Origin: Clostridiaceae bacterium
GTDB taxonomy: Bacteria; Bacillota; Clostridia; Christensenellales; CAG-138
Reading direction: 5' to 3'
Length of the DNA: 32,815 nt
Assembly (NCBI GenBank): GCA_039683525.1
Contig: JBDKRF010000016.1
Location: forward strand, 1-32,815
The position numbers and the translations under genes are program-made. Under the pieces are notes generated by a model that did no database searches, had not been told where the DNA came from, and saw only the letters and a program-made list of their open reading frames with translations. This document shows positions 4,245-32,392 of the stretch, one piece after another; within the stretch, counting starts at the first letter, position 1; each line of letters starts with the position of its first letter.

Positions 4245-4877
4245 TTATGTCGCGGGGCTTTCAGTTTTTCTAAATACGCGAAACAGCATCAGCACGCTAA
4301 ACACGCACAGCGCGATCATGCAAAGCAGTGAGATCGCGACACAGATCAACGCGATCCAGCCTGCGACCGGGCTGAGGCCTGCGCTTGTCGCATCGACTGC
4401 GGCGAGCGGTTTTGCATATATGAAGGAGCTGACAATCGGCAGCAACACCGCGGCGAGTGTGGTGAAGCCGATGGTTTTCCGCAGATACTGCGCGGCACGA
4501 GCTGCGAAATACAGAATCAGACCGCCGATGTAGGAGGAGAACCGTACGATCAGCATGATCATCGGAAACATCAAGACCGGAAGTGGCTGACCGGTCAACG
4601 CGCCGTGGAAAAAATAAACCGCTGCGAACAGAACCGGCAGATAGATGAAAACCGTTCCGATGATGGAGATCACCTTCGGGTTTCTCTTGCGCGGCGTGCG
4701 CGGCGGAGTCGCCGAAGCCGGCGTGTGCGCCGGCAACGGAGAGAGCGGAGGAAGCGGCATATCCTCCGGAGGCACGGAGAGTGCGGAGATAATATTGTCC
4801 GTCACGCTATTTTCTTCCGCGAGATTTGGGCGTTTGCCGATCATCTTTTTCGGGTCGGTGTTGATTTTATATTGCAT
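4245..4877 (-). CDS. hypothetical membrane protein, paralogue 2
   Basis: 210-aa ORF with GGAG 7 nt upstream of the ATG. It has the same architecture and conserved blocks as 3541..4164. Confidence 0.72.
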   Translation of the reverse strand: MQYKINTDPKKMIGKRPNLAEENSVTDNIISALSVPPEDMPLPPLSPLPAHTPASATPPRTPRKRNPKVISIIGTVFIYLPVLFAAVYFFHGALTGQPLPVLMFPMIMLIVRFSSYIGGLILYFAARAAQYLRKTIGFTTLAAVLLPIVSSFIYAKPLAAVDATSAGLSPVAGWIALICVAISLLCMIALCVFSVLMLFRVFRKTESPAT

Positions 4878-21044: not shown

Positions 21045-21101
21045 TATTGTACCTACTCCCTTAGCAGGGGAGCACCTTGTAAAACAAGAATGAGCAGAAA
21101 T

Positions 21102-21130
21102 AAAAAAACGCCCCGTAGGGCGTTTTTATT
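21102..21130. terminator. bidirectional intrinsic terminator between murD and the convergent hydrolase gene
   Basis: AAAAACGCCC-CGTA-GGGCGTTTTT is flanked by an A-run and a T-run. Confidence 0.85.
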
Positions 21131-21144
21131 TTAGTTTCGCTAAA

Positions 21145-25171: not shown

Positions 25172-25528
25172 TTACGCTCTGGCCTTCATGGCGATATCGA
25201 CGAGCTCTTTAAAAGCTGCCATATCGGTGATGGCGAGGTCGGCGAGCACTTTGCGGTTGATGTTCACATCCGCAAGCTTGAGCCCGTTGATCAGGCGGCT
25301 GTAGGTGGTGCCGCAGATGCGCGCGCCAGCGTTGATACGGGCAATCCAGAGACGGCGATATTCGCGCTTCTTCAGCTTGCGGCCGACATACGCGTACGCC
25401 ATGGACTTCATTACCTGCTGGGTTGCTGCGCGATACTGCTTGCTCTTTGCGCCATAGTAACCTTTGGCAAGCCGCAGAACTTTGCGGCGTTTCTTAACTG
25501 CACTAACTGCTCTCTTAATTCTAGCCAT
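25172..25528 (-). CDS. rplT: 50S ribosomal protein L20
   Basis: 118 aa: MARIKRAVSAVKKRRKVLRLAKGYYGAKSK...RRLWIARINA. Confidence 0.97.
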   Translation of the reverse strand: MARIKRAVSAVKKRRKVLRLAKGYYGAKSKQYRAATQQVMKSMAYAYVGRKLKKREYRRLWIARINAGARICGTTYSRLINGLKLADVNINRKVLADLAITDMAAFKELVDIAMKARA

Positions 25529-25862: not shown

Positions 25863-26393
25863 TTATGTCGGGGTTTTCTTCTCAGCCTTGGGAGCGAGAA
25901 TCATGAACAGGCTTCTGCCTTCCATCTTTGGCTCGCGCTCTTTGATCGCGCTGTCGCCAAGCATCTCGTAGAAACGGGTCATGACGTCCATGCCGATCTC
26001 GCCGTGTGTGATCTGGCGGCCGCGGAAGCGGATGGATACCTTGACTTTGTCGCCGTCCGCAAGGAATCTGATGGTCTGCTTGGCTTTGATCTCCATGTCG
26101 CGAACGTCAATGGTTGCGGAAAGGCGCGTTTCTTTGAGCTCGATGATCTTCTGATTCTTTCGCTGTTCCTTCTCGCGCTTACCCATTTCAAAACGGTACT
26201 TGCCGTAATCCATGAGCTTGCAGACGGGCGGAGTGCTGTTGGGTGCGATCTTGACCAGATCCAGTTCACGTTCATCGGCCATCTTTTGCGCCGCGCGGAC
26301 ATCTACGATGCCGAGCTGGTCGCCATTTTCGCCGATTAAGCGGACCTGTGGGTCACGGATCTCTTCATTGATCATCAATTCCGTGATAGCGAT
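25863..26393 (-). CDS. infC: translation initiation factor IF-3, probable non-canonical ATC start
   Basis: INEEIRDPQVRLIGENGDQLGIV... is typical IF-3. GGAGG (26407..26403) lies 9 nt before the in-frame ATC at 26393, but 24 and 27 nt before the TTG 26378 and ATG 26375 used by the track. Confidence 0.9.
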   Translation of the reverse strand: MAITELMINEEIRDPQVRLIGENGDQLGIVDVRAAQKMADERELDLVKIAPNSTPPVCKLMDYGKYRFEMGKREKEQRKNQKIIELKETRLSATIDVRDMEIKAKQTIRFLADGDKVKVSIRFRGRQITHGEIGMDVMTRFYEMLGDSAIKEREPKMEGRSLFMILAPKAEKKTPT

Positions 26394-29650: not shown

Positions 29651-30292
29651 ATGATGGAACAGCAGTTTGAGTTTCTGAAGGAATACAAAGAGCTTTATCA
29701 ACCGAAATCGACGCCTGCGATCATCGATGTGCCGGAGATGACGTTTTTCGCCGTGGACGGCAAAGGGAACCCGAACGAGGAGAACGGAGAATACGGCAAA
29801 GCGGTCGGGCTTCTTTACGCGCTGAGCTACACGATCAAGATGAGCGACAAAGGTGGCACAAAGCTTGCGGGGTTTTTCCCGTATAAGGTCGCTCCCTTGG
29901 AAGGCTTCTGGCAGATGGCGGATGGCAAACCCGGCGTGGATTACAACAGTAAGGACGCCTTTGAGTGGACGAGCCTGATCCGCCAACCGGAGTTTGTGGA
30001 TGCGGCGGCGTTTGACTGGGCCTGCGAGCAGGTGCGCAAGAAGAAGGGGCTGGACACATCCTGCGCGCGGTTGATGCAGTTTCGGGAAGGACTTTGCGTG
30101 CAGATGATGCACATCGGCCCGTACGACGCGGAGCCTGCGAGCGTGGAGCAGATGGACGCGTTCGTGCTGGCAAACGGTTATCGCAACGACCTCGGCATCC
30201 GCCGCCACCATGAGATCTATCTCGGTGATCCATCCAAATCCGCAACGGAAAAACTGAAAACGGTGCTAAGGCATCCGGTCGTGAAAGCTTAA
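29651..30292 (+). CDS. GyrI-like small-molecule-binding domain protein
   Basis: 213 aa with GGAGAG upstream. PEMTFFAVDGKGNPN...GFWQMADG...MHIGPYD...HHEIYLGDPSKSATEKLKTVLRHPV matches the GyrI-like/SOUL-type family as I recall it. Confidence 0.7.
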   Translation: MMEQQFEFLKEYKELYQPKSTPAIIDVPEMTFFAVDGKGNPNEENGEYGKAVGLLYALSYTIKMSDKGGTKLAGFFPYKVAPLEGFWQMADGKPGVDYNSKDAFEWTSLIRQPEFVDAAAFDWACEQVRKKKGLDTSCARLMQFREGLCVQMMHIGPYDAEPASVEQMDAFVLANGYRNDLGIRRHHEIYLGDPSKSATEKLKTVLRHPVVKA

Positions 30293-30297
30293 AACAA

Positions 30298-30560
30298 CCA
30301 AAAATCAAAAGCGCCAAATGATATGCGGGAGTGCTTTTCTACAGAAAAGCCTCCCCCTAAACTCTAACTCCACCAAAAATCAAAAGCCCCAAATGATCTG
30401 CGGGAGAACTTTTCTACAGAAAAGCCACACCTAAACTTAACATCACCAAAAATCAAAAGCGCCAAATGATCTGTGGGAGAGCTTTTCTACAGAAAAGCCT
30501 CCCCCTAAACTCTAACTCCACCAAAAATCAAAAGCCCCCGCATTGCTGCGGAGGCTTTTG
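30298..30560 (+). repeat. 73-75 bp tandem repeat, 3 full copies plus a 4th copy that forms a terminator-like hairpin
   Basis: Units start at 30298, 30373, 30446 and 30521, each with CCAAAAATCAAAAGC. Units 1 and 3 are nearly identical and unit 2 is more diverged. Each full unit contains GGGAG.GCTTTTC-TACA-GAAAAGCCTCCC. Unit 4 reads AATCAAAAGCCCCCGCA-TTGC-TGCGGAGGCTTTTGATT. Confidence 0.9.
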
Positions 30561-30883
30561 ATTGGGATGGGATGGGAGGTAATATTGGGGGTTTGTCAGT
30601 CTATGTCCTTGCTCTGGTGATAATGTACTACCCGCTTATGGAATAGCAATGTATAAAAAGTGAACTTCCTGTTACACACAAAGTTGCTCCAAAACAACCG
30701 ATTTTCGACTGTAAGACACAGAGAATAACAGAGAAACAACAGGTCAAATTTGCACAGAAACACGCGAAATTACGAAGAATTTACAAGAATCGGATGCAAT
30801 CGTCTCAACTGTTAAGCGGCAGACAGGGTAGGATGCCAAAATACGCTATGGTGATTTCCACACGAAAATGAGAAAAAAACGTC

Positions 30884-30911
30884 TTGCAATTTCATCTTCC
30901 TTGTGTATAAT
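30884..30911 (+). promoter_or_regulatory. sigma-A-type promoter of the tRNA operon
   Basis: TTGCAA (30884..30889), a 16-nt spacer, then TATAAT (30906..30911), about 14 nt before the tRNA-Val 5' end. Confidence 0.6.
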
Positions 30912-30924
30912 AATATTTGCACTC

Positions 30925-31001
30925 GGGGTTATAGCTCAGCTGGTCAGAGCGCTACGTTGACATCGTAGAGGTCGTTGGTTCGATCCCAATTAACCCCACC
31001 A
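30925..31001 (+). tRNA. tRNA-Val (anticodon GAC), CCA encoded
   Basis: Cloverleaf read by hand: acceptor GGGGTTA / TAACCCC, D arm GCTC..GAGC, anticodon arm CTACG-TTGACAT-CGTAG, T arm GTTGG-TTCGATC-CCAAT, discriminator A, CCA. Confidence 0.92.
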
Positions 31002-31010
31002 CCTTCAAAA

Positions 31011-31194
31011 TTGAATATCCTGCGGTGTGCGTTACGTCTTCCGTTTATAAACCCACAAAGTAACTTCGGGAGCGTTTCGTTGAGAAGACAAGATCAGGCC
31101 CGTTACGGATGGGAAGATCGCGGCAATCACGGCGTACCCACCTGCCGAGAGGCGGGTGTTATAAAGAGGGCGAACGGCACTTCGGGATACTCAA
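31011..31194 (+). ncRNA. candidate structured RNA of unknown class within the tRNA-Val/tRNA-Gln spacer
   Basis: The 5' strand 31011..31050 pairs with the 3' strand 31159..31194 for about 33 bp in five helical segments separated by 1-2 nt bulges. An 8-bp hairpin with a GAGA tetraloop (31139..31158) abuts this rod. No terminator or promoter separates it from the flanking tRNAs. Confidence 0.5.
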
Positions 31195-31204
31195 CAGACC
31201 GCAT

Positions 31205-31278
31205 TGCGGAATTGTGTAATGGTAGCACCTACGACTCTGACTCGTATTGTCTAGGTTCGAGTCCTAGTTCCGCAGCCA
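31205..31278 (+). tRNA. tRNA-Gln (anticodon CTG), CCA encoded
   Basis: Acceptor TGCGGAA / TTCCGCA (U1-A72, typical of bacterial tRNA-Gln), anticodon arm TACGA-CTCTGAC-TCGTA, T arm CTAGG-TTCGAGT-CCTAG, discriminator G, CCA. Confidence 0.9.
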
Positions 31279-31309
31279 AGAAAAAGCCCAACAACGGGGC
31301 TTTTTTTGC
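31279..31309 (+). terminator. intrinsic terminator of the tRNA operon
   Basis: AAAAAGCCC-AACAACG-GGGCTTTTTTT. Confidence 0.85.
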
Positions 31310-31435
31310 TTTTTGGCATCGTACAATAACGTAGGGGAATAAATCGTTTCATGCCAGATTCTTGCTGGGGCTGAGGGCGATATTTTACCTTTTTGGAATT
31401 GTTTTCTACTAGATTAACAAACAAAGGATATGCAG

Positions 31436-31467
31436 TACAATAAAAAATAGGCTCTCGAGAGAGCCTA
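31436..31467 (-). terminator. intrinsic terminator ending the minus-strand unit that comes from the zinc-ribbon gene
   Basis: On the minus strand, an 8-bp stem TAGGCTCT / AGAGCCTA with a 4-nt loop is followed by TTTTTTATT. Confidence 0.8.
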
Positions 31468-31523
31468 TGTGGAGGGATGGGTGGGCATGACCCCCGGGTG
31501 CGTATGCAGACAACCCTGTTGCG

Positions 31524-31598
31524 TTACTCGAATCCTACTGCGCCCAATAGCTTTCGCTCCATCCCAAACACACCCATGCGACAAGTATTATTTGTCAT
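31524..31598 (-). CDS. candidate 24-codon small ORF (MTNNTCRMGVFGMERKLLGAVGFE)
   Basis: AAGGAGGT (31613..31606) lies 7 nt upstream of ATG 31598, and the stop is at 31526..31524. The terminator lies about 55 nt downstream. It is below the track's length cutoff, and I have no homology evidence. Confidence 0.3.
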   Translation of the reverse strand: MTNNTCRMGVFGMERKLLGAVGFE

Positions 31599-31816
31599 CC
31601 GCGATACCTCCTTGATGAACTCCAGAAACAAAGTTGCTAAAGCCGTAAAGAAGGATAGAACTCCGACTGGGACGCCGCAAAGAAACGCGACAAGCAAGGT
31701 TGTTATTGCCTAATAAAAGTGAAACCTGAATACATGAGAAAGTAAACTGAATGGTTTAGCGAAATTTGCTAGTGAAACTTACCTTACTTTGGCGAGTGAA
31801 CTGTTGAAGATCAGGC

Positions 31817-32392
31817 TTATTTCCCCCAGCCGCTTGGCGCAAACGCAAGTAAAAGTGCGCTGAGCGCCAGAATCACGCCGGAGGCAATCAGCGACCAGGT
31901 ACGGCGATTGTTCGTTTTAGCAAGGGCGAGACCGATCGCAAAAAAGATCAGCGCGGGCACGAGAAACGAAAGCCCCGGCAGCCCGATATCCTGAGAACAC
32001 CAATAGCCGATGAGGGAGAGTACAAGCGCGGTGATGCCGCAGCCGCTTTCCTTCTTTTTTTGCCGTTGTTGCACTTTGTCGAATTCGTCGGAAGTGTAAA
32101 CACCCTCACCCGCGTGCACGGAAAATGCTTCCAGCGGAATATCCGCGCGAATCGGGGCTACATCCCGCAGGGTGCGACCGCAATCCGGACAGTGCGTATC
32201 AAACGAATGCCGACCGCAGTTTGGGCAAACTTTCTCATGGCTCTCGTGCAGGACGCCGCATTGCGGGCAATGCGAGGTGGTGAAGCGCGTTGCGCAGTTT
32301 TCACAGACGTAGAGAAAAGAAGTGGAGCCGCACGCGAGGCATCGGCGAACGCCTTGACTGGCGAGTGATCCGCAGGAAGCACATGCTTTCAT
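31817..32392 (-). CDS. zinc-ribbon (multiple CxxC) membrane protein
   Basis: 191 aa with GGAAGGAA 7 nt upstream. Eight CxxC pairs lie in the first ~75 residues (CASCG, CLACG, CENC, CPQCG, CPNCG, CPDCG...), followed by 2-3 C-terminal TM helices. Confidence 0.75.
   Translation of the reverse strand: MKACASCGSLASQGVRRCLACGSTSFLYVCENCATRFTTSHCPQCGVLHESHEKVCPNCGRHSFDTHCPDCGRTLRDVAPIRADIPLEAFSVHAGEGVYTSDEFDKVQQRQKKKESGCGITALVLSLIGYWCSQDIGLPGLSFLVPALIFFAIGLALAKTNNRRTWSLIASGVILALSALLLAFAPSGWGK

Follow-up and report, generated by a model that had tools for sequence, protein, structure and literature searches.

Bacterial 6S RNA, as represented by Bacillus subtilis 6S-1 (bsrA) and Escherichia coli SsrS, is about 180 nucleotides (nt) long and consists of a closing stem, a large central bubble, and an apical arm. 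The promoters of the model 6S genes are described as stationary-phase tuned. In B. subtilis, 6S-1 and 6S-2 are matured from their own transcripts by RNase J1 and RNase PH (PMC10578484), and the 6S gene of Clostridioides difficile has a sigma-A promoter of its own (PMC3649979). The literature that we found describes only a one-sided association of 6S with a tRNA gene, and this in Streptococcus: ssrS and tRNA-Lys1 of Streptococcus pneumoniae D39 form a joint transcript with no start site between the two genes (PMC6212727), and a survey of lactic acid bacteria noted several Streptococcaceae in which tRNA-Lys comes directly after 6S (PMC8414754). Here, we analyzed the long spacer between a tRNA-Val gene and a tRNA-Gln gene of a Clostridiaceae bacterium (assembly GCA_039683525.1, contig JBDKRF010000016.1, positions 1 to 32,815; this whole stretch of 32,815 nt is referred to as the window) and found it to be the gene for a canonical 6S (SsrS) RNA. 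The elements of the cassette are as follows.

30884-30911, + strand: promoter-like site of the sigma-A type (TTGCAA, 16 nt, TATAAT), with 10 of 12 consensus matches and an A-rich tract upstream
30925-31001, + strand: tRNA-Val(GAC), predicted by ARAGORN and scored at 70.1 bits by the Rfam tRNA model; CCA encoded, 3' end CCCCACCA
31002-31013, + strand: linker from the CCA end of tRNA-Val to 6S, about 9 to 12 nt, of which 31011-31013 are already paired with 31192-31194
31014-31192, + strand: 6S (SsrS) RNA, a 179-nt match to RF00013
31193-31204, + strand: trailer from 6S to tRNA-Gln, about 12 nt, variable in sequence
31205-31278, + strand: tRNA-Gln(CTG), predicted by ARAGORN and scored at 58.7 bits by the Rfam tRNA model; CCA encoded
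31279-31307, + strand: intrinsic terminator, an 11-bp stem followed by a T run

A preliminary description of the region, made from the sequence by eye, had drawn attention to a gap of about 200 nt between the two tRNA genes, and ARAGORN and Rfam both delimit a spacer of 203 nt (31002-31204). When the whole window was scanned with Rfam 15 at gathering thresholds, RF00013 matched the spacer with 62.6 bits against a gathering score of 46.4 (E 2.6e-10), over model positions 1 to 187 of 187. Two permissive scans, of 30850-31350 (E<=1) and of 30200-31900 (E<=0.1), listed none of raiA, Clostridiales-1, Y-RNA-like, SRP, and RNase P RNA; no competing Rfam family appeared in 30200-31900 at E<=0.1, where the only other entries were the two tRNAs and an antisense tRNA artefact, and no tmRNA was found by ARAGORN. 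In the alignment to RF00013, the closing stem and the apical arm of the family are recognizable, about 14 nt of the 5' bubble strand are unpaired, and the conserved CCCACCUG (3' side of the bubble) and CGGC (closing stem) are present on upper-case consensus positions of the model. Thus, the spacer is plainly the gene for a canonical 6S RNA, a known class rather than a new class of RNA. The preliminary description had proposed a noncoding RNA and left a 6S-like identity open, with raiA, Clostridiales-1, and Y-RNA-like families as further candidates; RF00013 was the only one of these to match. The annotation is thereby settled: the long spacer between the tRNAs is the 6S RNA gene of the organism. 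The extension of the closing helix beyond the model match suggests that the mature RNA spans about 31011-31194.

The RNA shares its length of about 180 nt and its three-part architecture with B. subtilis 6S-1 and E. coli SsrS, and it shares with the members of RF00013 the CCCACCUG and CGGC motifs, a 3' bubble strand that forms a hairpin, and a 5' bubble strand whose sequence fits the hallmarks of a template for product RNA (pRNA). Unlike the B. subtilis and E. coli genes, it lies inside a tRNA operon, with neither a promoter nor a terminator of its own. The difference lies in the position of a known RNA within a tRNA operon, a modestly unusual context that is conserved in the clade. Full-text searches of the literature turned up neither a Val-6S-Gln cassette nor an account of 6S in Christensenella, the broad 6S surveys (Wehner et al. 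2014, Barrick et al. 2005) being outside the reach of these searches and possibly mentioning tRNA-flanked 6S genes.

Conservation and fold of the spacer

Relatives were sought in the GTDB collection, with one genome per species, by a scan for the pattern ACCCACCTG N6-14 CRGGTG N5-35 AACGGCAC, taken from the 3' half of 6S, which was matched by 64 loci. Thirty of these carry a homologous 6S followed by tRNA-Gln(CTG) on the same strand, in genomes labelled Christensenellaceae, Christensenella sp., Feifaniaceae, "Oscillospiraceae", Eubacteriales, Clostridia, and Bacillota. In 28 of the 30, the gene immediately upstream is tRNA-Val(GAC), and the spacers measure 186 to 261 nt; the remaining two genomes have 6S and then tRNA-Gln only. 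Another nine matches are 6S genes of the Clostridium type or of unplaced Bacillota metagenome-assembled genomes (MAGs), without the Val/Gln flanks. Rfam detected no 6S in the 19 scanned matches outside Clostridia (Actinomycetes, Desulfobacterales, Akkermansia, and others), which are thus chance matches, so that no other 6S loci can be drawn from them as controls. Among the representatives, a Christensenellaceae MAG (L047) comes closest, with 85.5% identity over 8 kb; in a more distant group, alignment is confined to the tRNA-6S-tRNA cassette (about 78 to 81%). The window stems from an uncultured, Christensenellaceae-like member of the Clostridia, and DNA nearly identical to it was found only in metagenomes from wastewater, sludge, and digesters. 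The RF00013 threshold was reached in eight of the nine tRNA-flanked relatives tested, with scores of 54 to 83 bits.

For the comparison of structures, the 26 distinct spacers were aligned (alignment A1; 59% mean column identity), and RNAalifold returned a consensus of 51 pairs in eight helices. The parts of the fold, in window coordinates, are listed here.

31016-31039, + strand: 5' strand of the closing stem, paired with 31168-31189 (consensus helix 1)
31043-31067, + strand: 5' side of the central bubble together with helix strand 31045-31050, aligned to the unpaired 5' bubble of RF00013
31068-31138, + strand: apical arm, with helices 31072-31076/31132-31135, 31081-31083/31127-31129, 31092-31095/31116-31119, and 31100-31103/31109-31112
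31139-31158, + strand: hairpin in the 3' side of the central bubble, within the region of the universal CCCACCUG motif
31159-31189, + strand: 3' strands of the internal helix (31159-31164) and of the closing stem (31168-31189), including the conserved AACGGCAC

Standard pairs fill 98.3% of the cells of the consensus across the 26 spacers, versus 36 to 48% when the 3' partners are slid by 1 to 3 columns, and 15 of the 51 pairs show changes on both sides. None of 500 shuffles reached any of the observed pairing measures. Most of the compensatory changes fall in the apical arm, where they affect 11 of the 15 pairs of its four helices, and the rest in the closing stem (31016-31039/31168-31189), whose 19 pairs are formed in 98.2% of the cells and include 3 with a compensatory change. 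Variants from close strains in metagenomes keep the pairing as well: the change of C31038 to T leaves a U-G in place of a C-G pair, and that of G31170 to A a U-A in place of a U-G pair. The segment 31045-31057 is invariant or nearly so in the 26 species although it is unpaired in the RF00013 bubble. RNAalifold draws an invariant 3-bp CCC/GGG mini-helix where RF00013 leaves the 5' bubble strand of about 14 nt unpaired, a difference on which covariation cannot decide. Conservation of the spacer in relatives and compensatory substitutions, two of the checks proposed in the preliminary description, both came out in favor of a conserved RNA, with 28 Val/Gln-flanked genomes and 15 compensatory pairs.

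The rod form, with its closing stem, large central bubble, and apical stem-loop, is found in the minimum-free-energy (MFE), centroid, and consensus folds alike. The MFE of the whole spacer (31002-31204) is -68.6 kcal/mol, with a z score of -2.3 against shuffled sequence, and that of 31014-31192 is -65.1 kcal/mol (z = -2.7; 1 of 200 shuffles was as good). The strong evidence for the structure lies in the alignment of the relatives and not in the fold of a single sequence. Much of what had been drawn by hand held up. On a base-by-base re-check of the five pairings of the long rod, 33 of the 34 positions pair, the exception being an A/C mismatch at 31015/31190, and four of the pairs are G-U; the count of one mismatch and one G-U given for the first helix (31011-31022/31183-31194) is correct for that helix. 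The MFE fold contains the same rod and reproduces the 8-bp hairpin at 31139-31158, whose GAGA loop (31147-31150) is present in the sequence. As for the two local hairpins suggested in addition, the one at 31092-31119 is paired in 99% of the cells, with compensatory changes; the one at 31064-31087 was rejected, as the consensus structure lacks it and just 77% of the cells across relatives form its outer pairs. The 9-mer ACTTCGGGA does occur twice, at 31063 and 31179, but the repeat is lost in more distant relatives. A role of the repeat in alternative pairing was rejected, since the two sites diverge differently in the distant group (CGTCGGGA versus CCACGGGA).

These data bear on the explanation that the spacer is functionless, a structured stretch of the operon or a rod formed by chance, and is broken down once the tRNAs have been processed. 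Even with a single-sequence z score of only -2.3 in its favor, this is an extremely improbable account and effectively refuted: RF00013 scores above threshold in the window and in relatives, 15 pairs show compensatory change, segments in single strands stay invariant between genomes that can no longer be aligned in the flanks, and the element is contained in many RNA libraries (see below).

Transcription of the cassette

A consensus scan of the window revealed no promoter-like or terminator-like site within the spacer and no internal promoter in tRNA-Val or the linker, in agreement with the reading by eye; the nearest such sites are the promoter-like sequence at 30884-30911 and the terminator at 31279-31307. 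Transcription is predicted to start some 6 to 7 nt upstream of tRNA-Val, with the site at 30884-30911 as the putative promoter. A block CTTGC(A/T)-N17-TGTATAAT, reading (T)GTATAAT, stands upstream of tRNA-Val in all aligned relatives but one (L021), the A-rich tract upstream of it recurs in the close relatives of the window, and a stem with a T run just after tRNA-Gln is present in nearly all relatives. Thus, the conserved unit comprises promoter, tRNA-Val, 6S, tRNA-Gln, and terminator. The features by which membership of an operon is recognized are all found here: genes on the same strand, a promoter and a terminator on the outside, none inside, and RNA that spans the junctions.

In the more distant relatives, the linker between tRNA-Val and 6S shrinks to 0 to 3 nt. 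The group in which the closing helix starts 0 to 3 nt past the CCA of tRNA-Val consists of L010, L019, L020, L023, L038, L063, L064, and L068; in L019, for example, the Rfam tRNA match ends at 4739, CCA occupies 4740-4742, and 6S begins at 4743. The trailer before tRNA-Gln in the distant group is U-rich (e.g., GGGATTATTTTTTT), like a weak terminator right after 6S, and this U run is absent from the group of the window.

The element was then looked at in RNA data. Eighteen RNA or probable-RNA libraries, mostly metatranscriptomes of wastewater, sludge, soil, and sediment, contain 56 to 72% of its sampled 31-mers, with contig depths of 2 to 38. Eight of these runs were mapped onto the locus as assembled contigs, and the contigs span only about 30916-31293. 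No RNA contig was found on the flanks of the cassette in the eight runs, and DNA runs do cover 30700-30915, which argues that the signal is RNA, with the predicted promoter and terminator as its limits. The junction of tRNA-Val and 6S is crossed by contigs 30934-31187, 30985-31167, and 30972-31279, and that of 6S and tRNA-Gln by 31017-31224, 31025-31279, and 31095-31278. Because such contigs need reads from an unprocessed precursor, they support co-transcription. One contig of 184 nt, from a run labelled with an organism name, consists of just 31015-31189 plus a few bases and matches a discrete species of the size of 6S. No consistent mature ends emerged from the contigs of the RNA runs, in which several ends are adapter or read-length artefacts. 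Beyond the equivalent of 31278-31279, runs X26, X28, and X39 carry the sequence CTCCATGGTCAAGCGGTTAAGACGT, by eye probably another tRNA and not a terminator, so that the operon would be longer in some relatives.

Three types of variant, compared by sequence, indicate that the Val-6S-Gln layout is flexible. In the first, that of Christensenella sp. UBA6094 (L021; 2098-2358, - strand), a 60-nt insertion between tRNA-Val and 6S bears a strong promoter-like site (TTGACT-17-TGCTAAAAT), the conserved promoter before tRNA-Val is missing, and tRNA-Glu(CTC) directly follows tRNA-Gln. The second is found in L060 (about 2350-2813) and L032 (1-320 in the 6S-sense orientation, the stored locus being reverse-complemented), where tRNA-Val is absent and a promoter is followed by a leader (about 70 nt, including a GC hairpin) and then by 6S and tRNA-Gln; since both loci keep tRNA-Gln in this situation, tRNA-Gln is the constant partner of this 6S lineage. 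In the third, found in Clostridium akagii and a related MAG (L056, 4934-5350, - strand; L070, 7565-7979, - strand), 6S scores 62 to 66 bits, has its own promoter (TTGAAA-17-TGATATAAT), and is followed by a hairpin without a T run and, 62 to 64 nt downstream, by tRNA-Glu(CTC). The last two loci likely represent another 6S-tRNA co-transcript.

All three variant types provide cases of a 6S gene with its own promoter among the relatives, and one could argue by analogy that the window 6S also has its own and is merely sited between tRNA genes, with 6S and the tRNAs made as separate transcripts. Several lines of evidence render this quite improbable. The linker of the window measures only 9 to 12 nt, with no promoter-like site either there or in tRNA-Val, and in the second group of relatives it measures 0 to 3 nt; contigs from RNA libraries span the tRNA-Val/6S junction; and after 6S, there is no room for a separate promoter of tRNA-Gln.

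Co-transcription would liken the window to ssrS-tRNA-Lys of Streptococcus, in which 6S and a downstream tRNA also share one primary transcript and are separated by processing. The C. akagii-type loci, with 6S and then tRNA-Glu, resemble the Streptococcus arrangement. There, 6S is first in the transcript, with its own promoter and a tRNA on one side, whereas the window 6S sits between two tRNAs in the interior of the transcript, and in some relatives of the window, unlike in Streptococcus, 6S begins immediately after the CCA end of the tRNA upstream.

Proposed maturation and function of the 6S RNA

We propose that a single transcript of about 390 nt, running from the promoter before tRNA-Val to the terminator after tRNA-Gln, would contain tRNA-Val, 6S, and tRNA-Gln. 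RNase P would cut it at 30925 and 31205, the 5' ends of the two tRNAs. The cut at tRNA-Gln, which is safe to expect from general tRNA biology, would release 6S on its 3' side, still bearing the trailer of about 12 nt (31193-31204), and 3' exonucleases would trim this trailer back to the closing helix; in B. subtilis, the 3' ends of 6S RNAs are trimmed by RNase PH (PMC10578484). On the 5' side, 6S would be freed by a second cut in the 9- to 12-nt linker past the CCA of tRNA-Val. RNase Z of B. subtilis acts on CCA-less precursors, and both tRNAs encode CCA; an RNase Z cut is therefore doubtful in this clade, unless the enzyme cuts after CCA, as it reportedly does in Thermotoga. Candidates for the cut are an RNase Y- or RNase J-type enzyme acting in the linker and RNase III acting on the extended rod, 31011-31016 being paired with 31189-31194 in the close relatives of the window. 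The preliminary description had pictured a co-transcribed noncoding RNA released by RNase P and RNase Z; the conserved unit in 28 genomes, the covariation, and the junction contigs bear out its main part, and the doubt concerns the RNase Z cut.

As read from the sequence of the window cassette, both ends of 6S must presumably arise by processing of the tRNA precursor. A more far-reaching idea, to which we attach a tentative and rather low probability, is that in this clade 6S biogenesis depends obligatorily on tRNA processing: 6S would have no promoter of its own, its synthesis would be tied to a tRNA-type promoter, and in the relatives with a linker of 0 to 3 nt a single precise cut after CCA would make the 3' end of the mature tRNA and the 5' end of 6S at once, which would imply a CCA-proximal endonuclease, such as an RNase Z of the Thermotoga kind, that acts on a product other than a tRNA. 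If this were true, the level of a polymerase-sequestering RNA would be linked to the activity of a stable-RNA promoter, possibly as a feedback loop. Operons of stable RNAs are known to yield spacer-derived RNAs, such as small RNAs from the spacers of tRNA operons and the processing stalks of rRNA operons. Like these, the window 6S would be a structured RNA freed by RNase P and other cuts of a polycistronic precursor, and the 5' leader and 3' trailer pair in the clade of the window and extend the rod to 31011/31194, comparable to processing stalks. Unlike spacer fragments, it is a full member of an independent and widespread RNA family.

The mature rod of about 180 nt would act through its central bubble, which is expected to mimic an open promoter and thereby to bind and sequester the RNA polymerase holoenzyme with the housekeeping sigma-A. 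Release of 6S would occur when the polymerase copies a short pRNA from the 5' strand of the bubble. Two hallmarks are described for pRNAs, an adenine adjacent to the start and GG at positions 4/5 (PMC8414754). The 5' bubble of the window 6S fits the corresponding hallmarks of the template, in which CC codes for GG at positions 4/5 or 5/6, with A31057, C31056, and CCC at 31052-31054. Taken with the invariance of 31045-31057, they suggest a pRNA start opposite C31056 and a predicted product 5'-GUGGGUUUAUAAAC; an invariant unpaired segment at this place is as expected of a pRNA template and polymerase contact. One might suppose instead that the RNA has diverged and is no sigma-A decoy, for example, that it binds core polymerase like Ms1 or serves as a scaffold for the processing or folding of the tRNAs. 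Such a divergence is compatible with a 6S function that, in this clade, is predicted from sequence, and with a tRNA-type promoter that differs from the stationary-phase-tuned promoters of the model 6S genes, but the full match to RF00013, including the universal CCCACCUG, the CGGC motif, and the geometry of the bubble, and the pRNA hallmarks in the invariant 5' bubble strand make it highly improbable. The scaffold variant is further countered by the fact that neither tRNA needs such a spacer in other bacteria.

Taken together, we consider it very probable that 6S RNA is processed here from one tRNA-Val/6S/tRNA-Gln transcript and acts as an open-promoter mimic that is released by pRNA synthesis. 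A number of points weigh against this view. The single-sequence fold is only moderately better than chance (z between -2.3 and -2.7), and one relative (L010) lies below the RF00013 threshold. The pairs were counted in the very alignment that had served to derive the consensus structure, the 3' hairpin and AACGGCAC were set by the search pattern, so that their invariance carries no weight, and the genome counts are numbers of pattern matches rather than the share of the clade that has the Val-6S-Gln layout. Given the promoter-like insertion of L021, 6S may be transcribed independently in some lineages at least. Finally, the expression data are assembled contigs without strand, true ends, or abundance, and carry-over of DNA may contribute to the signal of the RNA libraries.

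The cassette puts 6S synthesis under a tRNA-type promoter and is of some value for the biology of RNA processing: it would offer a natural case, in about 28 species-level genomes, in which a global regulator of transcription has to be matured by RNase P and by a cut that follows an encoded CCA. Should a cultured carrier exist, it would be a simple system for how 6S levels are set when the gene lacks a promoter of its own.

Surroundings of the cassette

The surroundings of the cassette in the window are ordinary chromosomal core genes, and the annotated genes of the window include no signs of a mobile element around it. The genes elsewhere in the window are the following.

Aminotransferase and MsrAB; type II topoisomerase A and B subunits (DNA_topoisoIV and DNA_gyraseB domain families)
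Cell-wall cluster: mraW, PBP, murE, mraY, and murD
infC-rpmI-rplT with an L20 leader; MFS transporters, GDPD, VanZ, and GyrI-like

Intergenic stretches of about 500 to 600 nt (30293-30883 and 31308-31816) flank the cassette, both with no open reading frame of >=100 amino acids (aa) and no Rfam match at E<=0.1. The downstream stretch contains a promoter-like site at 31414-31441 (+ strand) and a minus-strand terminator at 31468-31447. A Ribosomal protein L20 leader (RF00558; 26411-26538, - strand; 65.1 bits against a gathering score of 58.7) lies upstream of infC (25863-26378), rpmI, and rplT (25172-25528) and is also syntenic in relative L025. A strain-level indel is located at about 21045-21144, where the window has only about 100 nt between an isochorismatase gene and murD; metagenome contigs of about 96% identity carry at this place a 360-aa CAP12-PCTIR TIR-domain gene (L001, 11447-12529; L002, 8032-9114), the CAP12-PCTIR TIR domain being of the defence type.

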